A DNA stretch of 49,586 bases from a virus: the UHGV virus genome UHGV-0212814. One strand, given 5' to 3'. The translations under genes were made by a program, and so were the position numbers. Under the pieces are notes generated by a model. It saw only the letters and a list, made by a program, of their open reading frames with translations, made no database searches and was not told the DNA's origin. Of this stretch, positions 3,482 to 38,723 are shown in pieces; within the stretch, counting starts at the first letter, position 1; every line of letters starts with the position of its first letter.

Positions 3482-3497
3482 GTTGCGATATCGCAAC
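3482..3497. promoter_or_regulatory. perfect 16-bp palindrome GTTGCGATATCGCAAC, 16 nt upstream of the int start
   Basis: the identical palindrome recurs at 6466-6481 upstream of the endolysin. Confidence 0.5.
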
Positions 3498-3513: not shown

Positions 3514-4650
3514 ATGCCAAAACGAAAGAAACATCCCAGGCTCCCCAACGGCTACGGCTCCATCCGATACCTTGGCAAGAGCCGGAAGAACCCCTATGCG
3601 GTCCACCCGCCGGCAGACATTGACGGGAACCGGCCTCCGGCCCTCTGTTACGTGGATGACTGGATGAAGGGTTTCATAATCCTCACATCCTACAAGGCAG
3701 GTACCTATACCCCAGGTATGGAGGCCGCCCTGAATCTGCCTAATACCCCCGATACCCTTGATTCCCTGGCAGGGAAAATCATGGCCGATTACAACCGTGT
3801 CAAGGGAATCGAACCTGAGGAACCTGAGAAGACCTTCTCAGCGGTCTACGATGCATTCTATGCCGATAAATTTGCAGAAGGCAATAAATACTCTGCGGCA
3901 ACTAAATATTCAATCAAGGCCGCTTATAAGAACTGTGCATCCCTCTACGGTAAAGTGTTTTCTGCACTCCGTACAAAGGACCTGCAGGATAACCTGGATG
4001 CCTGTGGTCTAAAATATGCCAGCCTGGAACTTATCAGGAATCTGTACAGGCAGATGTATAAATATGCTGACAGTCAAGGGTGGTGCGATAAGGACTATAG
4101 TCAGTATGTTAAAATTAAAAGGGATGACGATGACGAACATGGTGTGCCCTTCTCAGACGCAGACCTGAAAATCCTGTGGGATAACAAAACTGACGAAACT
4201 GCAGAGATGCTTCTCATTATGTGCTATTCCGGATGGCGTATATCAGAATACATTGGCCTTGAAGTCAATCTGCCGGAAAAGTATTTTATGGGTGGAATGA
4301 AAACGGAAGCTGGTAAGGGGCGTATCGTTCCTATCCATTCTGCAATTCTCCCTTTGGTCGGGCGCCGGATGGGAAAGTATGGAAAGCTCCTTCCGTGCAG
4401 CGACAAGGATTTCAGGAAACAAATGGAGGAGCTACTGAACCGGCTCGGAATCCCAGGTGACCCCAAGCATACACCACATGACTGCCGGCATACATTCTCC
4501 ATGTTGTGCGAAAAGTATGAGGTAAAAGAAAACGACCGTAAACGGATGATGGGGCACTCATTCAAAGCCGACATCACCAACAAGGTCTACGGCCACCGCG
4601 ACATGGAAGACCTGAAAAAAGAGATAGAAAAAATAACCGTTGATTTGTGA
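3514..4650 (+). CDS. int: tyrosine site-specific integrase
   Basis: C-terminal HDCRHTFS...MGHS...Y catalytic pattern of phage integrases; 378 aa. Confidence 0.9.
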   Translation: MPKRKKHPRLPNGYGSIRYLGKSRKNPYAVHPPADIDGNRPPALCYVDDWMKGFIILTSYKAGTYTPGMEAALNLPNTPDTLDSLAGKIMADYNRVKGIEPEEPEKTFSAVYDAFYADKFAEGNKYSAATKYSIKAAYKNCASLYGKVFSALRTKDLQDNLDACGLKYASLELIRNLYRQMYKYADSQGWCDKDYSQYVKIKRDDDDEHGVPFSDADLKILWDNKTDETAEMLLIMCYSGWRISEYIGLEVNLPEKYFMGGMKTEAGKGRIVPIHSAILPLVGRRMGKYGKLLPCSDKDFRKQMEELLNRLGIPGDPKHTPHDCRHTFSMLCEKYEVKENDRKRMMGHSFKADITNKVYGHRDMEDLKKEIEKITVDL

Positions 4651-5297: not shown

Positions 5298-5531
5298 ATG
5301 ATTATGAGATTGGAACGACTACGGGATTTACGGGATGACAAGGATTTGACACAGCAATATGTTGCGGATTACCTGCATATAAACCAACGGACCTATTCCA
5401 GGTATGAGAATGACCAACGGATGATACCGTTCCAGATTCTATCTGCGCTTGCTGATTTATATGACACCAGTGTTGATTATCTGATAGGACGGACAGATGT
5501 TAAGGATCCGTATCCCAAGAAGAAAAGGTAA
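5298..5531 (+). CDS. XRE-family HTH regulator
   Basis: LTQQYVADYLHINQRTYSRYENDQ HTH_3 motif; RBS GGAGGA; a 9-bp inverted repeat CCAATACAG/CTGTATTGG brackets the TATAAT -10 just upstream. Confidence 0.75.
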   Translation: MIMRLERLRDLRDDKDLTQQYVADYLHINQRTYSRYENDQRMIPFQILSALADLYDTSVDYLIGRTDVKDPYPKKKR

Positions 5532-5568: not shown

Positions 5569-6411
5569 TTACTCTCCTAGTCCTGGCCAGCGCAACGCCC
5601 CATCCTTATCCGGTGTTAGTGTCACAGGCTCCGTGGCCATCTTACCATCCGGCATCAGGTAATAGTAGTTGCCTCCACCGGCCTGCAGTCCCTGAACCAT
5701 AGCCCCATCCGCGCCCAGGTAGTACCAGTCACCTTTGTACTGATACCAGGTATCGGTGACCATGTGGCCGGTGCCGTCAAACCAGTACCACTTGCCATCC
5801 GTATCAAGGTACCAGGAGTTGCGGACCGGCTCACCGGTATTTCCCAGGTAAAAGCTCCAGGCACCGTCCGCATTCTGCTCCCAGCCGGATTTCCTTGGCT
5901 GCTCCGGCTCCTGGATTACATCATCCTGTATGTATCTACGCACACACACCAGCCCCTTACGCCATCCTCCGGACGCCCAGGAATTGTACCGACTCTTACA
6001 GTAGGCCACCAGGTCCTTATAGGACGGCCTGCCGGAACCGTGACCACAGATAATGCCGTTGCCGCAGTACATCTCCACATGGCCTATCCTGAGTGGCCTG
6101 GAAGCATCCGTACCAGCAAACAGTAGCATGTCCCCCGGCCGGAGCCTGGACGTATCCGGGATGCCTTGGGCTATGTCCGCATCCACGGTGGTCAGCTTTT
6201 TGGACTGGTAGATGCCTGCGGTGTTAAGATTTCCGAATCCCATTCCTACCGCCTCATAGGTAAGGCAGATGGAGCTGCTGCAGTCACTGTAGTAATTACC
6301 ATCCTTATATCGTACATAGCAGTAATCCCTCAGGGACTGGCTGTATATGTTACGGCCTATAATCTCTGCGTACTTATCAATTACGGCCTGTCTCCTTAAT
6401 AATGCTGTCAT
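5569..6411 (-). CDS. endolysin: NlpC/P60-like cysteine peptidase plus C-terminal cell-wall-binding repeats
   Basis: Cys...His...His pattern (CLTYEAVG, IGHVEMYCGNG) and YG/W-rich repeats (GWEQNADGAW, WYLDTDGKWYW, WYQYKGDWYYL). The track ORF runs to a TTG at 6480; the ATG at 6411 has RBS TGGAGGAAAG and is preferred. Confidence 0.75.
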   Translation of the reverse strand: MTALLRRQAVIDKYAEIIGRNIYSQSLRDYCYVRYKDGNYYSDCSSSICLTYEAVGMGFGNLNTAGIYQSKKLTTVDADIAQGIPDTSRLRPGDMLLFAGTDASRPLRIGHVEMYCGNGIICGHGSGRPSYKDLVAYCKSRYNSWASGGWRKGLVCVRRYIQDDVIQEPEQPRKSGWEQNADGAWSFYLGNTGEPVRNSWYLDTDGKWYWFDGTGHMVTDTWYQYKGDWYYLGADGAMVQGLQAGGGNYYYLMPDGKMATEPVTLTPDKDGALRWPGLGE

Positions 6412-6480
6412 ATCTTTCCTCCAATCCAAATAAGGCCCAGGGATATCCCCAGGCCTGCCCACATTGTTGCGATATCGCAA

Positions 6481-6705
6481 CTAATCCCGGACAATATTCC
6501 CGGATGTATCCACATGCCAGCCAACGGCAATCACAAACTTCCCGGTATCATCGTGATAGTCAATCCCGTGGTCCGGGCCATCATACAGGGATTTAAGGGT
6601 GCCATATTCAGGTGTTCCCTTGGCAGCCGCAATCTTTGCCTCCAGGTCAGGGATTTCCGCAACATTAATAGGCTTCCATGGTTCGTTGTTCAATGGATAA
6701 TTCAT
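6481..6705 (-). CDS. hypothetical protein in the lysis cassette
   Basis: 74 aa; RBS GAGGGAAAG. Confidence 0.55.
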   Translation of the reverse strand: MNYPLNNEPWKPINVAEIPDLEAKIAAAKGTPEYGTLKSLYDGPDHGIDYHDDTGKFVIAVGWHVDTSGNIVRD

Positions 6706-6785
6706 AGTCTTTCCCTCTCTTTCATGATTTGGTTGATAGTTCCGCCTTAACCCTGACGGCTGGGAGATGTATGGACCACCTCCCC

Positions 6786-6998
6786 TCAGGCATCAGTCTT
6801 GGTATCCAGTTCCGGTAGTCCGGCTATGGATGTAGCCATGGACAGGATGCCCGCCAGTACGGATGCGGATGCTACCATGGGCCAGTTAACCTCACCCATT
6901 ACGGCAGCCGTCCCCACTGTTGCTATAAACGTCTGTGCTACCGTCTTGACCGCCCTGCGCCCTGCTGCCCTGAACCATTTCCTTGTGTTCTCACTCAT
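6786..6998 (-). CDS. holin (XhlB/SPP1-type, two TM segments)
   Basis: 70 aa from the second ATG (RBS AGAGGAG); two hydrophobic stretches; sits between the XhlA-like gene and the endolysin. Confidence 0.7.
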   Translation of the reverse strand: MSENTRKWFRAAGRRAVKTVAQTFIATVGTAAVMGEVNWPMVASASVLAGILSMATSIAGLPELDTKTDA

Positions 6999-7012
6999 AG
7001 ATATATCTCCTC

Positions 7013-7345
7013 TCATTTGATGATGTACTGAGCCATCATTGCGATAAGACCGATTGCCAATGCCGCAGCACCGGCCCCAATCATTTGGTTAAATACAGTC
7101 CGTTTCATACTACTCCACCGCTCTCCTGGCTCCGCCTTTAGTTTCTCAATGTCTTCTCCCTGTTTCTTCTGCTCATGGAGCATGTTCCCCATATTGATAG
7201 TCAGTTCTTTTACTGACAGGGCAAGGTCCTGTATAGCCTGATTCTGTACTTCCAGGTCATCAATCCGGTGTTTTGCTGACTTTGTCTCATGTTCCAACGC
7301 AGTAAGTTTTATGGCGATTTCTTCATCATTCACATGTGGCACCAT
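7013..7345 (-). CDS. xhlA: XhlA-family haemolysin-like lysis protein
   Basis: coiled-coil N-terminus plus C-terminal TM (MIGAGAAALAIGLIAMMAQYII), as in PBSX XhlA. Confidence 0.65.
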   Translation of the reverse strand: MVPHVNDEEIAIKLTALEHETKSAKHRIDDLEVQNQAIQDLALSVKELTINMGNMLHEQKKQGEDIEKLKAEPGERWSSMKRTVFNQMIGAGAAALAIGLIAMMAQYIIK

Positions 7346-7350
7346 CCTTC

Positions 7351-7818
7351 CTATGATATTTGGGGCAACCAGATTATCTTAGGCCTGCGCCGTGTAATGC
7401 CTACGTTATAACGTGGCCGCTCCTCACCCCACCATCGGTACCGCAGCCAGTCATCCAGCACAATCCCGGTCAGGGATACCGGCAGCCAGAGCAGGCAGTA
7501 CTGTGGGCATATCTGCCCCAGGACGTTGCCCGGAAGGCCGCTGTAGTCCCATACCCCCCAACCCAGCCACAGGTTGACGATGCACCCGGTCAGGAACTCC
7601 AGCGCCGTCACGATGCAGGCGCCGGTTAGTATCTGCTGCCACAGGGGCATGTCCCAGGGTAATACCTCATTGATTAGTCCCAACGCCACGAAACAGATGC
7701 CGCCCAGAAGGAACATCGTCCAATGGCTCCTGCCGCGCCAGGCCATCTCCAGGATTATGTACAACAGCCCTCCTGTAACCAGCAGGGCCGCATACTTGTC
7801 AACCTTCCGGTGTGGCAT
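7351..7818 (-). CDS. hypothetical 4-TM membrane protein
   Basis: four hydrophobic segments; start MPHRKV with RBS GAGGTGG; the track ORF extends to 7896. Confidence 0.5.
   Translation of the reverse strand: MPHRKVDKYAALLVTGGLLYIILEMAWRGRSHWTMFLLGGICFVALGLINEVLPWDMPLWQQILTGACIVTALEFLTGCIVNLWLGWGVWDYSGLPGNVLGQICPQYCLLWLPVSLTGIVLDDWLRYRWWGEERPRYNVGITRRRPKIIWLPQIS
7402..7416. promoter_or_regulatory. palindrome ACGTTATAACGTGG (second copy of the 35101-35116 palindrome)
   Basis: 14-15 of 16 nt identical to CCACGTTATAACGTGG at 35101. Confidence 0.35.
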
Positions 7819-33068: not shown

Positions 33069-34469
33069 TTATTTTAAGACTGAGATTCCACCCTTCCTTG
33101 CGCAGTTCTCAGCAATACCTGTCGTGGCATCCGGTGCATCATCATGCTTGTTCTGGCCCTCACGTTGGTACTTTATCATTGCATTATGGTACTCAAGCCA
33201 ACGGTTCTTCCAATCCTCCGGGAAATAGATATGCTGCATCACCCAGGCTGAGTTGGAATATATCCTGGCCTGCTTGTTCTGTGTCTGGGTAAACCACTTT
33301 ATCGTGGTATAGTTGCTGCCCAGCTCCTGCTCCAGGATACGGCGCACATTCCGAGCAAATCCACGCCCACCATTGTTGGACTCAATCCTTGCCAGATTGA
33401 CTCCTCCGGCCTGTAACATCTTAGCCGTGGCCGGTTCCGTGACCTCCATAGGCTCCTTGGTATACAGGACATCCAGTACATACGCTTCATTGGCGAACGT
33501 AACACCATAGTTGATGCTGCACAGGTAGTCCCCGCCGGTGTCAGCCGTATCCGTATAGTTGCGTATCTCCTTGAACTGAGGCAGTTCCCCGCTGTAGGTC
33601 TTGAAGCTGGTATATAGCCTGCCCTTCAGGTCAATCGGCTCCTGCTGGTAGTTGGCTGATGCAATGTCGGCGCCCATGGCCCGTATCTTGGCCTGGTAGG
33701 ATTTATAGGACAGAACCTCAGGGCATAGCATCTCATGTGTGTACGGATTCTGGAGTGCTTTCATGGAGATATGCCGCACCTTTGCCCCTGCCTCCTTGAA
33801 ATGCTCCAGCGCACGTCCTGCCAGGTCATCGCTGGCCCACCGGGTCATGATGATGATAATCTTCCCACCCTCTTCCAGACGGGACAGCATCGTATCCGTG
33901 AACCAGGTCCAGTGCTTCTCCTTGGTCAGCTCGTTGTTGGCCTCCTCGGCGTTCTTGATAAGGTCGTCAATGATAAGAAGAGACGCGCCAAAGCCTGTTG
34001 CTGTTCCGGTCGGGGATGTGGCCAGGTAGTTGTTGTATCCGCCCTCCAGGCTCCAGAGATTCATGGCGCCGTCACCGCGCTTGATGGATACACCCGGGAA
34101 TATGTCGGAGAACACAATCCGGTTCTCATCCGCCTTCTCCTCCTGGATGTCATTACGGACGTTCTTGGAGAACATGGTGGAAAGCGTCTCGTTGTAGGAG
34201 CCGGTCATGATTTTCTGCGTCTGGTCGTTGCCCAGTACCCATTCAACCAGCAGGCCAGCCGTGCGGCTTTTTCCGTGCCTGGGAGGTTCGTTGACAATCA
34301 TTACCTCATCGTCAGACTGTATGAAGTCCTGAAACTCGCTACAGAGGTCAACCAGATACTTTCTGTCCTCCTTATAGAAGTCCGGGGCTTTGAGACTGCA
34401 ATAAAAAAAGAACTCGCGCCGCGCAAGCTCCATCTTCGCACCCCTGATTATGGTTTCCCTATCCACCAT
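33069..34469 (-). CDS. terL: terminase large subunit
   Basis: 466 aa; ATPase N-half (PRHGKSRTAG Walker A-like) plus nuclease C-half; overlaps terS. Confidence 0.9.
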   Translation of the reverse strand: MVDRETIIRGAKMELARREFFFYCSLKAPDFYKEDRKYLVDLCSEFQDFIQSDDEVMIVNEPPRHGKSRTAGLLVEWVLGNDQTQKIMTGSYNETLSTMFSKNVRNDIQEEKADENRIVFSDIFPGVSIKRGDGAMNLWSLEGGYNNYLATSPTGTATGFGASLLIIDDLIKNAEEANNELTKEKHWTWFTDTMLSRLEEGGKIIIIMTRWASDDLAGRALEHFKEAGAKVRHISMKALQNPYTHEMLCPEVLSYKSYQAKIRAMGADIASANYQQEPIDLKGRLYTSFKTYSGELPQFKEIRNYTDTADTGGDYLCSINYGVTFANEAYVLDVLYTKEPMEVTEPATAKMLQAGGVNLARIESNNGGRGFARNVRRILEQELGSNYTTIKWFTQTQNKQARIYSNSAWVMQHIYFPEDWKNRWLEYHNAMIKYQREGQNKHDDAPDATTGIAENCARKGGISVLK

Positions 34470-35010
34470 GTATCAGCTTCTTCAGTTCCTCGGTGGTCAG
34501 GCCGACATAAGGGTTTGTGGTATCAATCTGGCCAGACAGCTCCAGTTTATCCTTGAACATGCCCAGATGGCGGCCCATCAGTTCGATTGCCCTTAATTTA
34601 TCAGTCAGCTTATACTTCTTTACATATCCCGCAAACTCCCTGTCCTCGCCAGCTCCTTCGAAATAATCCACCACTTCCAGCCCTGCAATACAGGCAGCCG
34701 TGTCATCATCAAGTATCGATATATCCACTGGTTTTCCATTACTGTCAAACAACTTCCTGATATCGAATAGGACCAGTTTCTCCAGTTCCTGTAGCACCCT
34801 GTCCTGGGTAATCTCGGTACGCTTTTCCCGCTCCTTCATGCGCTCTTGTATGTATTCTGCAACGTTAACATTGGTTAACAATCTGCTCCCTGCAGCTTTT
34901 GCCACCTCATCCTTCTTTACCTTCGGGTATGCCACCTTGTAGGCCCTGGTGGCATTCAGGTCTATCAGGTACTCATCCGCAAATATTTTCTGTTTTGGCG
35001 TTAATGCCAT
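34459..35010 (-). CDS. terS: terminase small subunit
   Basis: KQKIFADEYLIDLNATRAYKVAYP, typical of the Terminase_2 family; ATG with RBS AAGAAGGTG (the track ORF starts at a GTG at 35019). Confidence 0.8.
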   Translation of the reverse strand: MALTPKQKIFADEYLIDLNATRAYKVAYPKVKKDEVAKAAGSRLLTNVNVAEYIQERMKEREKRTEITQDRVLQELEKLVLFDIRKLFDSNGKPVDISILDDDTAACIAGLEVVDYFEGAGEDREFAGYVKKYKLTDKLRAIELMGRHLGMFKDKLELSGQIDTTNPYVGLTTEELKKLIHGG

Positions 35011-35093
35011 CAGGTTCACCTTCTTTCATGCAATAAAATAGCACCTACCAGTATCAGCAGATGCAACAAACTTATAAAATATCCATATTCCGC

Positions 35094-35122
35094 TTGACTC
35101 CCACGTTATAACGTGGTATAAT
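35094..35122 (+). promoter_or_regulatory. near-consensus promoter TTGACT-17-TATAAT with palindromic spacer CCACGTTATAACGTGG
   Basis: a perfect 16-bp palindrome occupies the spacer (operator-like). Confidence 0.55.
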
Positions 35123-35152
35123 TGTATTATCAAAAGGAAAGGAGGATAGCCG

Positions 35153-35266
35153 ATGGGTAAGAAACAAAAGAAAAATGAGAACTTGTTCAACCAAATAATC
35201 AAAGCCATGGTCGCCACCGCCGCTCTGATTACCGCAATCGCACAGTTGATACAAGCTCTCAAATAG
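35153..35266 (+). CDS. 37-aa basic/hydrophobic peptide (MGKKQKKNENLFNQIIKAMVATAALITAIAQLIQALK)
   Basis: RBS AAAGGAAAGGAGG; strong promoter; followed by hairpin GGGGAGA-gaaa-TCTCCCC; type I toxin-like architecture. Confidence 0.45.
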   Translation: MGKKQKKNENLFNQIIKAMVATAALITAIAQLIQALK

Positions 35267-35470
35267 GACACCGGGGAGAGAAATCTCCCCTCCTAATAAA
35301 ATCTTACCACATCAGCTAAATTTAATCAATGAAGTTTGATACAGTACTATTAATATTCACCCTTATTTACGCCCTCGGTACAGATTGGTCCATCCCGTCA
35401 TGCATTCTTGTGATATGCTGCTCCATTTATGTACTGTGCTGTACACTCCCCAGGATAAGGAGGTCATACC

Positions 35471-35662
35471 ATGAACTTAAAAAAGATAAGAAATAACCAT
35501 GGCTTAAGCATCCGTGCCCTGTCCGAATTGGCCAACGTACCACAACGGACAATCGAAGACATAGAGAGGTTTGACCGTTGCAAGGTAGATACTGCAATCA
35601 AACTGGCGGATGCCTTGGGCGTCACACTGGATGAACTCTGTAGGGATGAGGCGGCCGAATAG
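35471..35662 (+). CDS. XRE-family HTH regulator
   Basis: LSIRALSELANVPQRTIEDIER HTH_3 motif. Confidence 0.7.
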   Translation: MNLKKIRNNHGLSIRALSELANVPQRTIEDIERFDRCKVDTAIKLADALGVTLDELCRDEAAE

Positions 35663-35733
35663 GCTGCCTTTTGTTTGTTTTGGGGTATGTAAAAGAGCCG
35701 CCCGGAGGTGGCCCTTAATCTTATAGTATGTAA

Positions 35734-36060
35734 TTAACAACGACTGACAATATCATTTAACCACGAGATATGACTTTCAAGGCTTCGCTTCTTTGCCAAC
35801 AGCTCTGGATTTTGCTCTAACTCTCTAAAACTCTTTAAAGCATCATTTAGTTGCGCATAAGCTTCCTCAATTTTTGAATCGCGCTCAAACTCTTTTGACA
35901 ATTCCCACAACACTTCTTTTTGGGCAACATCTTCTCTTTTTTTATTAAAGAGGTCTTTTAAATCTTCGTACTCTTCTAGCTTCTTATTTCTCAAATTTAA
36001 ATATTCATTTTTTATGTCGCTCAAAAACTCTTGCCGATTAATATCTGTCCAGCTTTCCAT
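35734..36060 (-). CDS. hypothetical coiled-coil protein (low-GC cassette)
   Basis: 108 aa; about 38% GC against about 53% phage background. Confidence 0.5.
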   Translation of the reverse strand: MESWTDINRQEFLSDIKNEYLNLRNKKLEEYEDLKDLFNKKREDVAQKEVLWELSKEFERDSKIEEAYAQLNDALKSFRELEQNPELLAKKRSLESHISWLNDIVSRC

Positions 36061-36149
36061 GTAAATACCCCCACAATCTTTTTTCTATTATCATACACCA
36101 AAATCTGACATAAGAAAATCCCCTGCCAAATTTTTATCCGGCAACACAT

Positions 36150-36716
36150 TTAGAACCTCGGTAAATTCTCATTAATCTCTTTCACAGATTCTTCTGATAT
36201 TTCATTAGCACATACTTTCTCATTAACTTTTTTCTTCTCACTAAGCAACAGACTAATAATTATGCTAATAAATCTATAAGAATTACATGCAAAGTTAAAA
36301 ATAATCCCTATCCATAGAAAAATCACTATCTTTAATACTTCTTGTCCAAAATCGTCACTTAGATAAAGTAAAACTGACAACAAAATACCACTAAGCCCAG
36401 ACAATACCACACTTTTTATTTTACCTACGAATACATCCATATTAGCGTTTTCAATAAAATATTTGACCATGGTATCATTTTTAGCCGATATTAAAGAAGG
36501 GATTAAAAAACCAAATATGCTGATAATAATTGACATGCACGTTATCAATGCTGTAAGCATATCACTGAATAACGAATTTTTACATATTTGTAAAATCTGG
36601 ATTTTTTGTTTGACTTCGGCAAAAAGTAAAATGCTTATTATAGTCATTGGAATTATTAAAGCATAATGTGAATACCAAAAAGCATGAAAATCTCCTTTAC
36701 CCCCTATTTCATTCAT
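36150..36716 (-). CDS. 4-TM membrane protein (low-GC cassette)
   Basis: 188 aa; four hydrophobic helices plus a cytoplasmic C-tail; follows the 302-aa gene by 6 nt. Confidence 0.6.
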   Translation of the reverse strand: MNEIGGKGDFHAFWYSHYALIIPMTIISILLFAEVKQKIQILQICKNSLFSDMLTALITCMSIIISIFGFLIPSLISAKNDTMVKYFIENANMDVFVGKIKSVVLSGLSGILLSVLLYLSDDFGQEVLKIVIFLWIGIIFNFACNSYRFISIIISLLLSEKKKVNEKVCANEISEESVKEINENLPRF

Positions 36717-36722
36717 TTAACC

Positions 36723-37631
36723 TCACCCTTTTTTTAATAAATTAGCTATTTGTGCCCTTGAGCCTCCTTCACTATATTTTTTAGACATCTCTTTAGAAAG
36801 CGTATAGAAGGACAACTCCCCTCTTGGCGGAACCTTATAATTAATCTTATCATTTAAGATATTTTGTAATAAATCAAATACCTCCGACTTTTGATCATCA
36901 CTCAATGTTATTCGGGCAGAAGAAATTAATTCTCGGTTATCTCCACTCCTTATTTCCCGAACTATTCCTTGCATCGTTTCAGCCTCCAACTCATCATGAT
37001 GACCATAATTATATCCCAAGCCAAATTCAAGATGTGCCGTCTTGCATTCCACCTGATTACATAATTTAATAATATCCTCAAACGTTTTGCTATTCTTAGA
37101 TACTAAACTGCGGGTATTAGCAAAACGAACATCCAGTTTCAAAAATTGTTTTTTTAACAAATCAACATTGTCATAGTCATAGTCAATTGGCCTGAAATAG
37201 CATAGATTACCATCCCCAATAAAACTATTCACATAGCTTTGTAAAGCAAATGTTCCATAACTACCTCGATTGCATTGAACCATTGCAACATGATATCTTG
37301 GATCATACAATACAACTGTATTCTTCCCAATATACTCATTTTCTCCAAGATCCACATGGCGAGCCATTGTGTCTGGAGCCAATACATATGTATTACTTAC
37401 AACATCTAAACGCATAAAATTCAATACATAAAACTCATCATTATGCACTAAAGCAATATTTTCAAGGCGCCCACTAATTCCATCAATATCTTTTATACGA
37501 TCTTGCAACGAAAGTGATTTTAGCCTCCCTATCCATTCACGTAAATCATAAGTATATTCCGTTGTTTCATCTCCTATAATTGTACACAGCTGATAATACT
37601 GATACTTAATAGTGACTCTTTTTCCATCCAT
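36723..37631 (-). CDS. 302-aa cytoplasmic protein (low-GC cassette; candidate defence sensor/effector)
   Basis: about 33% GC; own extended -10 promoter TGTGATATAAT (37661-37673) and RBS GGGGAGA. Confidence 0.6.
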   Translation of the reverse strand: MDGKRVTIKYQYYQLCTIIGDETTEYTYDLREWIGRLKSLSLQDRIKDIDGISGRLENIALVHNDEFYVLNFMRLDVVSNTYVLAPDTMARHVDLGENEYIGKNTVVLYDPRYHVAMVQCNRGSYGTFALQSYVNSFIGDGNLCYFRPIDYDYDNVDLLKKQFLKLDVRFANTRSLVSKNSKTFEDIIKLCNQVECKTAHLEFGLGYNYGHHDELEAETMQGIVREIRSGDNRELISSARITLSDDQKSEVFDLLQNILNDKINYKVPPRGELSFYTLSKEMSKKYSEGGSRAQIANLLKKG

Positions 37632-38105: not shown

Positions 38106-38606
38106 CTAATCCAACATGAGGGCATCCGCCCCAAAGAGATATACGCTGAGTATTCCCGTAAGCTCTGTTATCCACCGTCTGGCCGTCCGTTCCCCATATC
38201 CATAAATCTCTGCAATACTCTCATATGTCATCCCATCCAGATAGAAATACTTGAATGCCAGATACTTCTCATGCGTATTCTTTCGGCACTCCTCGTCCTC
38301 CAGGAGTTGCAGGCACTTGTCTATGTGTCCTATCATGACAATACTCCGGAGCTTACTCTTGAGGATGCTGTTAATAAAGATATCTTCCTCCGTGAACTCC
38401 TCCAGTTCATCGCCATTATCCATGTCGGACAGTTCTGCCACCCCCTCCTCCACGCTCTGACAAATGCGGTTATAATTCTCCATCAGCTTCTTGGTGTTCT
38501 GGAATACCTTTATTCTCTTTTCCCTCCGGAGCTGCTTCTCATGCTCCTTAAGGGCTTCCTTCGCGGCCAGCCTGGCCACCTCCTCCAACGCTTCTGCCTG
38601 TTTCAT
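38106..38606 (-). CDS. sigma-70 region-4-like / ArpU-type late-gene regulator
   Basis: C-terminal HTH YESIAEIYGYGERTARRWITELTGIL; start MKQAEAL with RBS GGAGGAGGTG; the track ORF extends to 38690. Confidence 0.5.
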   Translation of the reverse strand: MKQAEALEEVARLAAKEALKEHEKQLRREKRIKVFQNTKKLMENYNRICQSVEEGVAELSDMDNGDELEEFTEEDIFINSILKSKLRSIVMIGHIDKCLQLLEDEECRKNTHEKYLAFKYFYLDGMTYESIAEIYGYGERTARRWITELTGILSVYLFGADALMLD

Positions 38607-38723
38607 CGGCATCACCTCCTCCCACATCCAGGTACGGACACGCCCAACACCCGTACCGTATCCTGCCCTTATTGTTGCGCTGTCCATCACAGCTGTGGTG
38701 CCCGTTGTCTATGTAGCACTGTC

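Follow-up and report, generated by a model that had tools for sequence, protein, structure and literature searches.

A type I toxin-like membrane peptide heading a predicted autorepressed operon in gut Clostridia prophages

Type I toxins are defined as small (<60 amino acids, aa) hydrophobic peptides with a potential transmembrane helix (PMC5961336). Prophages of Clostridioides difficile carry several such systems (CD0977.1-RCd11, CD0956.2-RCd10 and others), in which toxins of 34–53 aa are read from an AGGAGG ribosome-binding site (RBS) and accompanied by sigma-A antisense RNAs, and which stabilise phiCD630-1 (PMC7699646; PMC5961336). According to a 2019 review, type I toxins of Clostridia other than C. 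difficile escape homology searches almost entirely, and repressor-linked type I modules are not mentioned there (PMC6563280). In the aapA1/IsoA1 system of Helicobacter pylori the full-length mRNA is inert, processing at its 3' end activates it, and the antisense RNA acts on the active form (PMC5416894). The subject of the present analysis is a 37-aa peptide gene and its surroundings in the UHGV virus genome UHGV-0212814, a stretch of 49,586 nucleotides (nt) referred to below as the window. An earlier note on this DNA had described the gene as type I toxin-like and as lying behind a near-consensus promoter with a palindromic spacer. Comparison with relatives suggests RNA-level control of the type I toxin-antitoxin kind, which is the known part; the new part is that the peptide gene appears to be the leader of an autoregulated three-gene operon, a travelling module of ~650 bp at a cargo hotspot.

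The peptide gene, its promoter and the linked repressor

Relatives were fetched through the helix-turn-helix (HTH) protein encoded in the module, giving 122 relatives in viral contigs of IMG/VR and 38 in species genomes, with hosts in Enterocloster, Blautia, Hungatella, Hominisplanchenecus, Oscillospiraceae, Sedimentibacter and other Clostridia. Nearly all share a common layout: a TTGAC[TA]-17-TATAAT promoter with an inverted repeat in its spacer, a GGAGG Shine-Dalgarno (SD) sequence and an open reading frame (ORF) of 27–47 aa, then a GC-rich tetraloop hairpin without a U-tract and, ~60 nt on, a small membrane ORF lacking an SD and the HTH gene. All the elements from the promoter to the hairpin recur together at ~50 distinct related loci. 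The cassette is truly missing only from L027 and L032; the other seeming exceptions have peptides that start at GTG, TTG or apparently ATT (L037, L048, L006, L028, L058, L060 and L057).

The peptide gene occupies 35153..35266 on the plus strand and encodes 37 aa, MGKKQKKNENLFNQIIKAMVATAALITAIAQLIQALK, with a basic N-terminus (N-flank charge of +3) and one helix of transmembrane (TM) grade (Kyte-Doolittle 2.0 across 19 residues), much as first described. It is preceded by a Shine-Dalgarno region, AAAGGAAAGGAGG (35133..35145, plus strand), whose GGAGG (35141-35145) ends 7 nt ahead of the ATG at 35153; the RBS is thus as strong as had been claimed, and a GGAGG-type SD is found in all relatives. 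The peptide is conserved among relatives, with a pN/pS of 0.31 in its own family and of 0.24 and 0.21 in two others, and in these three families the third codon positions vary most and conservation is greatest in the hydrophobic helix. This comparative evidence marks the 37-aa peptide as a genuine small protein of membrane type that is under selection. Across relatives the slot is taken by at least six to eight peptide sequence families with no relation to one another, and all of them have a TM-grade window (Kyte-Doolittle 1.5–2.3); a strongly basic flank is present in about half of the families, N-terminal in some and C-terminal in others.

The exact peptide occurs in 703 index blocks of public assemblies, and a count placed it on 375 contigs. 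An identical sequence is deposited as UniRef100_A0A8S5MEM3, “Smalltalk protein”, and as “hypothetical” in NCBI record DAD80702.1; neither NCBIfam nor Pfam holds a match to the peptide that would go with the first of these names, even at E ≤ 10. Searches for homology gave no Pfam or NCBIfam match, nothing usable in PADLOC, only unknown-function entries in PHROGs (E ≥ 0.006) and no credible match in Rfam. Likewise, tblastn with two peptide families against 50,697 phage records found no match, and phmmer against 1.84 billion proteins returned just five, of which the four short ones are peptides of the same family. The antisense strand had been thought to hold only implausible ORFs; those seen in the window measure 81 and 60 aa, and none is maintained among relatives, so a conserved antisense protein is rejected.

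The promoter, P1 (35094..35122, plus strand), consists of TTGACT (35094-35099), a 17-bp spacer and TATAAT (35117-35122), with a TG at 35114-35115. It scores 11/12 with the TG at -15/-14, is the top promoter-like site of the 3 kb scanned, and predicts a transcript start at ~35129 and a 5' untranslated region (UTR) of ~24 nt. The spacer is made up of one C and a perfect 16-bp palindrome, CCACGTTATAACGTGG (35101..35116), of the form CCACG-N6-CGTGG. Both elements lie where the earlier note had placed them. Neither is remarkable statistically, with three perfect 16-bp palindromes observed in the window vs 0.65 expected, and with promoter-like sites at about the shuffled rate, without enrichment, in a simple scan; the case therefore depends on conservation. 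The promoter is kept as TTGAC[TA]-17-TATAAT in ~50 distinct relatives, and in these the half-sites of the palindrome vary symmetrically (CCACG/CGTGG, GCACG/CGTGC, CCAC[AT]/[AT]GTGG, GCACT/TGTGC and GCACA/TGTGC) while the central 6 bp drift.

These changes can be followed in the protein encoded downstream. The HTH gene (35471..35662, plus strand) has a strong SD of its own and encodes a 63-aa XRE/Cro-C1-type protein with an HTH_3 domain (PF01381, E = 1.6e-11) at residues 3-56 of the 63; an identical protein is deposited as WP_227116905.1, from sources named Enterocloster / Lachnoclostridium pacaense. The outer base of the operator follows HTH residues 15, 25 and 29 with no exceptions: operators of the GCAC/GTGC type go with P15, R25 and Q29 in 19/19 distinct HTH proteins, and those of the CCAC...GTGG type with non-P, non-R and E at the same positions in 30/30. 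In L104, L055 and L059 the switch of operator and HTH is independent of the remaining protein and of the peptide family. We take positions 25 and 29, within the “VP.RTI.D” stretch, to belong to the recognition helix. Because the symmetric half-sites covary with residues 15, 25 and 29, the palindrome is very probably the operator of the module's own HTH protein, a predicted autorepressor and the most likely candidate for a factor binding this site, for which a search had been proposed. With the operator inside the 17-bp spacer of P1, the simplest interpretation is that the HTH protein occludes the promoter and so regulates its own operon negatively, with binding predicted from the covariation.

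Other roles for the palindrome and its protein fare poorly. Promoters of the MerR type have a spacer of 19–20 bp; since the spacer here is the optimal 17 bp, an activator site of this kind is rejected. A type II toxin-antitoxin pair is rejected as the HTH domain fills the 63-aa protein, leaving no toxin-binding region beside it, and as the peptide and the neighbouring ORF2 match no toxin family. Peptide quorum sensing (RRNPP, arbitrium, Rgg/SHP, PrgX/PrgQ) is set aside since the 63-aa regulator is HTH only and lacks a peptide-binding domain of the TPR type, and a quorum-sensing pro-peptide since several cassette families carry a C-terminal basic stretch that is not signal-peptide-like. PADLOC gave weak matches of the HTH to Control_protein (5e-6) and capH (5e-5). 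In Geobacillus phage TP-84, which has an HTH 45% identical, the upstream small ORFs are Spo0E-like by eye and are not membrane peptides; it was rejected as a counterpart. A further match, “Mycolicibacterium phage J1”, comes from an unverified record.

Between the peptide and HTH genes lies ORF2 (35329..35496, plus strand), which encodes 55 aa with two TM segments, lacks an SD and overlaps the HTH start by 26 nt. Its protein is conserved at 47–96% identity, and other cassette types also place a small membrane ORF at this point; an SD was found in none of the 18 representatives in which ORF2 was found. Gene finders left it uncalled in 10/10 inspected places, and it is called in few public records. 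The operon appears to be closed by an intrinsic terminator on the plus strand at about 35648..35680, located by a terminator scan. The peptide is thus a real gene and, a point missed in the earlier description, not a stand-alone one: it is the first cistron of a predicted operon with ORF2 and HTH.

Messenger fold and convergent antisense promoter

The hairpin noted earlier behind the peptide gene (35264..35295, plus strand) has its core at 35273-35290, GGGGAGA-GAAA-TCTCCCC, directly past the stop codon and with no U-tract. The extended stem (35264-35295) folds at -17.7 kcal/mol and includes the peptide's stop codon. A hairpin is found at this position in 18/18 representatives, at -9.5 to -19.5 kcal/mol (17 of the 18 at -13.9 or stronger), with sequences that differ among them and loops of GAAA, UUCG or GCAA. 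As a U-tract follows it in no relative, a role as intrinsic terminator of P1 transcripts is rejected.

A second, long-distance structure encloses the whole ORF. The sense RNA from 35129 to 35330 folds with z = -6.2, and in this fold the translation-initiation region (TIR), GCCGAUGGGUAAGA (35149..35162, plus strand), pairs with an anti-TIR element, UCUUACCACAUCAGC (35302..35316, plus strand), just 3' of the hairpin. Where relatives have differing start regions, these come with matching 3' elements, and the mean duplex energy is -14.3 kcal/mol for cognate pairs vs -8.4 kcal/mol for non-cognate ones; the cognate duplex ranks top in both row and column in 9/14 independent groups (permutation 0/20,000). 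For the family of the window, RNAalifold makes TIR/anti-TIR the closing helix, with compensatory changes at 3/10 pairs, and also finds two helices within the ORF and the terminal hairpin. Double changes occur at 13 pairs, vs 5.6 ± 1.7 after shuffling (0/500), and 91% of cells are paired, vs ~40% when the partners are slid. G-U wobbles in these structures, the hairpin included, indicate that the sense strand is the one under selection. The start codon of the peptide is thus predicted to be hidden by a covarying mRNA helix. A DNA inverton made of the TIR/anti-TIR repeat is an unlikely explanation, since the arms always take in the start codon and lie to either side of the ORF body rather than of a promoter.

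Facing P1 is a predicted antisense promoter, P(as) (35301..35329, minus strand), composed of a -35 TTGATT (35329-35324), TGg (35309-35307) and a -10 TAAGAT (35306-35301), with a predicted start at ~35294. An extended -10 (Gram-positive TRTGn-TAnnnT) with a TTGnTT-like -35 at 17 bp is present in 17/18 representatives, the extended -10 lying 29–39 nt beyond the peptide stop codon (44–49 nt in L013). A stricter scan (extended -10 plus TT[GT] -35 at 17 bp) finds it in 16/18, vs 0.8% expected per locus, a binomial probability of ~1e-32 that ignores the relatedness of the loci. In 15 of those 16 the predicted start falls at -1 to +5 nt relative to the hairpin's 3' edge, and the antisense RNA would therefore begin with the hairpin. 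No counterpart of P(as) was found in cassette-less relatives. In the “DIIIKVLTIIW” peptide family, the codons GAT ATA ATA were seen also to pair with the reverse complement of the antisense -10 (TGATATAAT).

The antisense RNA would end at an intrinsic terminator on the minus strand (35031..35064), a hairpin at 35064-35041 followed by a T-run, which also stands as a gate ahead of terS; an equivalent hairpin and T-run are found in most relatives, irrespective of the next gene. P(as) and this terminator together predict an antisense RNA of ~260 nt (35031..35294, minus strand), with a fold z of -5.1, that covers the ORF, the TIR and P1 and leaves out the anti-TIR element.

Module boundaries and phage context

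The module can be delimited through phages that have a homologous terS and no cassette (L195, L206, L200 and L270). By blastn, positions -60..-14 upstream of terS in these phages correspond to window 35724..35675, and the match from -16 on corresponds to window 35026 downward. As the first match abuts the second in the cassette-less phages, the module is an indel of ~650 bp (~35027-35678), an insertion (35027..35678) by comparison with them. In order, it consists of P1 with its palindrome, the 37-aa peptide gene, the tetraloop hairpin, ORF2, the 63-aa HTH gene and a terminator, and the minus-strand terminator hairpin (35064-35041) falls within the inserted segment. Upstream of terS in L259 (IMGVR_UViG_3300045988_092451) there is a scar of cassette deletion in which both ends are left: a stretch like window 35672-35624, the 3' end of HTH, lies ~27 nt upstream of a stretch like 35046 onward. 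The cassette is therefore losable as well as gainable.

The window represents a temperate Lachnospiraceae-type phage with genes largely on the minus strand. Its lysogeny module includes an integrase (3514-4650) and an ImmA/IrrE-type protease (1795-2496) along with XRE repressors, its lysis cassette (5569-7345) an XhlA-like gene, an r1t-type holin and an endolysin, and its replication genes lie at 39–49 kb. The first of the late genes is terS (34459-35019), followed by terL and the portal gene. The peptide locus, on the plus strand, has terS on one side and a low-GC cargo island (35734-37631; 28–36% GC) on the other; the island has a DUF6731 protein, a 188-aa membrane protein and a 108-aa ORF, and the module heads the packaging operon. 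In 10/10 distinct places inspected, the exact 37-aa peptide was found with the HTH gene at a constant distance and a packaging gene opposite. The terminase type beside these exact-peptide cassettes varies, being Terminase_2, Phage_terminase, or HNH with Terminase_4.

The cargo past the HTH gene differs among otherwise similar prophages (loci L184-L193), marking a variable hotspot. In these loci it includes a ThsB-like TIR gene (the name of a protein type here, not of the initiation region) with a 144-aa ORF, DUF4747 with a 243-aa ORF, DUF8426 and others, with DUF6731 in the window; PADLOC gave no match for any cargo protein of the window. One cassette-bearing prophage (L187, 334-2802) has an 822-aa large-terminase gene that holds an intein (PF14890).

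In this phage family an intrinsic terminator lies 20–40 nt ahead of the terS RBS whether the cassette is present or absent (observed at window 35031-35064 and 35697-35712, and at loci L194-L273); among 73 relatives, it is present in the 60 that have no cassette. No promoter is visible from the terminator to terS, and the late genes therefore probably need read-through or antitermination. A 194-aa sigma-r4-like protein (38106-38690), with a faint Q-like match (E = 0.05), is a candidate late regulator.

The earlier note had also reported that the core of the palindrome recurs at 7402-7416. A copy matching at 15/16 bases, CTACGTTATAACGTGG (7401..7416), does lie in the 3' end of a CmpB-like membrane-protein ORF, ~55 bp upstream of the XhlA-like lysis gene, and we estimate that the window should contain ~0.001 matches this good, one mismatch being allowed. 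Only a near-identical contig (L161/L175) keeps the site; in a phage whose XhlA-like protein is 97% identical those codons read CCGCGATACAAACTGA, and a second copy of the operator is absent from every other cassette-bearing locus or contig. The recurrence itself thus stands, and a second operator as a general feature is rejected; the site may be a lineage-specific secondary operator or an accident. Another perfect 16-bp palindrome, GTTGCGATATCGCAAC, occurs with unrelated flanks at 3482-3497 and 6466-6481, the one copy 17 nt upstream of the integrase start and the other where the endolysin gene starts. Some other regulator, such as the 77-aa XRE protein at 5298-5531, probably has this palindrome as its operator.

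Interpretation and comparison with known systems

The regulatory anatomy taken by itself appears secure to a high degree. P1 would be a near-consensus sigma-A promoter whose spacer operator is bound by an HTH dimer, giving autorepression by occlusion, and would drive a single operon transcript carrying the peptide, ORF2 and HTH. The peptide would be a translated and selected membrane-type miniprotein, its start region in the full-length mRNA sequestered by pairing with an element 3' of a stable hairpin, and a convergent promoter at the 3' edge of that hairpin would supply an antisense copy of the ORF, TIR and P1 sequences. To this the reading we favour adds a function, a type I-like toxin module with an added autorepressor, and to this fuller reading we give about an even chance. 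Under it, the full-length mRNA would be inert for peptide translation; trimming from the 3' end would halt at the tetraloop hairpin, having stripped off the anti-TIR element, and the message would thereby be activated. The antisense RNA, which starts at the hairpin and excludes the anti-TIR element, would match the processed species and block or destroy it, while the HTH protein would hold sense transcription under the level of the antisense. Peptide in excess would damage the membrane. The likely benefit would be a more stable prophage, or more stable variable cargo beside it; abortive killing when repression and antisense control fail is a possible alternative.

Several observations weigh against this explanation. 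The initial description of the peptide as type I toxin-like gains from the selected membrane peptide, the conserved antisense promoter and the covarying start-codon fold, and loses in that no homologue was found among known type I toxins, antitoxin RNAs, or defence proteins and families. Each step of the mechanism is drawn from comparison. In the predicted fold the SD itself is unpaired, and the 5' UTR is short (~24 nt); cognate pairing is weak in the L064 and L013 groups, and L050 and L064 have no antisense -10 within the scanned window. The relatives are not phylogenetically independent, so that P values are optimistic. Classical type I systems are of two genes, without a co-transcribed repressor or a second membrane protein, and most described Gram-positive type I toxins have a charged tail at the C-terminus, whereas the peptide of the window is basic at its N-terminus.

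The most serious alternative keeps the same regulation and makes the peptide and ORF2 non-toxic membrane effectors of the lysogen, acting in superinfection exclusion, in defence-associated functions or lysogenic conversion, or in lysis timing, with the control layers keeping their dose low and steady. Small membrane proteins of prophages, such as HK97 gp15 and T4 Imm, stop phage DNA entry. The module adjoins the variable cargo slot with its ThsB-like TIR, DUF4747, DUF6731 and DUF8426 genes and is moron-like in having its own promoter and terminators; negative autoregulation would yield homeostatic expression, and two small membrane proteins are predicted to be co-expressed from the operon. However, three layers of repression, including a covarying lock on the start codon, are typical of harmful products and unusual for a protective factor, and six to eight unrelated peptide families in one slot suggest a generic membrane activity with no specific target. 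We regard such effectors as possible but unlikely.

Less probable again is that the small ORF is mainly a cis-acting leader, whose translation or membrane insertion remodels the hairpin and helix and so sets the expression of ORF2 and HTH, the peptide having no function in trans. The geometry would suit such a role: ORF2, always without an SD, has its ATG 7–12 nt 3' of the long-distance helix, with the peptide SD 0–6 nt 5' of the same helix; the stop codon lies within the extended hairpin stem, and the whole ORF is enclosed by the fold. The amino acids, however, are under purifying selection in three families, most strongly in the hydrophobic helix, the conserved antisense promoter is aimed at the peptide ORF specifically, and HTH is equipped with a strong SD of its own; we consider the leader role improbable. 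The same geometry permits a more speculative idea, of which we are as doubtful, in which the closing helix sets the free SD of the peptide beside the SD-less start of ORF2, the open state giving the peptide and the closed state ORF2, a candidate partner or immunity membrane protein. The triple-locked unit would then be an addiction anchor for the adjoining variable slot of defence cargo.

It is very unlikely that the minus-strand promoter and terminator serve late-gene control, with antiterminator read-through as at lambda PR'-tR', the palindrome being a late operator common to the packaging and lysis operons and the peptide incidental. The module is always immediately upstream of a late-type gene; the terminator ahead of terS, seen also in the 60 cassette-less relatives, probably needs read-through; the second palindrome lies upstream of the lysis cassette, and the sigma-r4-like protein has its faint Q-like match. 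Yet P(as) occurs only with the cassette while the terminator is general, which weakens the case for P(as) as a late promoter; no relative has a second operator copy, site 2 being lost in spite of the 97%-identical lysis protein; and the operator tracks the cassette's own HTH, with the peptide under selection. A functionless chance assembly of promoter-like, palindromic and ORF-like sequence has next to no probability, since the near-chance rates of such palindromes and promoter-like hexamers in the window stand against an entire architecture conserved, with covariation, at ~50 distinct loci in many Clostridia.

The module is common in human-gut prophages of Lachnospiraceae and Oscillospiraceae, with relatives in Enterocloster, Blautia, Hungatella and others, and its predicted design unites RNA-level control of a toxin with a protein repressor. 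Operator and repressor switch jointly (CCAC with Q/K..E, GCAC with R..Q) in what amounts to a natural specificity series and a possible source of orthogonal regulatory parts. The module also marks a recombination hotspot with defence-like cargo and may aid in mining it. Should the peptide prove toxic, it would become, for gut Clostridia, a candidate counter-selection marker or determinant of prophage stability.

With regard to the features of type I systems, the 37-aa peptide falls within the size and hydrophobicity range of the toxins, the overlapping cis-encoded antisense RNA gene is a comparative prediction, and the mRNA fold that would block initiation is predicted to hide the start codon and not the SD. 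As in the C. difficile prophage systems, there is a small prophage-borne peptide that combines a hydrophobic helix with a poly-basic stretch, an RBS of the AGGAGG consensus 7–8 nt ahead of the ATG, a host of the class Clostridia, a convergent antisense RNA of ~130–280 nt from a sigma-A-type promoter (predicted here), and a structured mRNA hiding the initiation region. Unlike those systems, with which there is no sequence homology, the toxin-like gene here comes first in an operon that also has a second membrane ORF and an HTH gene, the HTH is predicted to repress the toxin promoter through the spacer operator, and the basic stretch of the window's peptide is N-terminal.

The hok/Sok system of plasmid R1 follows the same logic as aapA1/IsoA1. 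The present locus resembles both in the long-distance 5'-3' pairing predicted to render the full-length mRNA inert, in a stable 3' structure that would halt trimming and in an antisense extent that fits the processed species. It differs from them in that the sequences and phylum are unrelated, the helix covers the start codon and leaves the SD free, the mRNA runs into two more genes, a repressor is added, and processing is inferred. Small XRE/Cro autorepressors of 60–100 aa (restriction-modification (R-M) C proteins, CapH) likewise have an HTH and a palindromic operator overlapping their own promoter, and exert feedback on a potentially harmful co-transcribed gene; here, in contrast, no R-M or CBASS genes adjoin, and the regulated genes are membrane miniproteins. 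The operator also lies wholly in the optimal 17-bp spacer, which implies pure repression, and paired C-boxes for activation and repression are absent. Switches built from convergent promoters and a small peptide gene are found in prgQ/prgX-Anti-Q of pCF10 and in ant/sar of P22. The module shares with these switches the face-to-face promoters (~165 nt apart here), the antisense RNA over a short peptide gene and the operator at the sense promoter, while differing from them in its bare 63-aa HTH, which has no peptide-sensing domain and is encoded by the sense transcript, and in a peptide that does not resemble a signal peptide in most cassette families.

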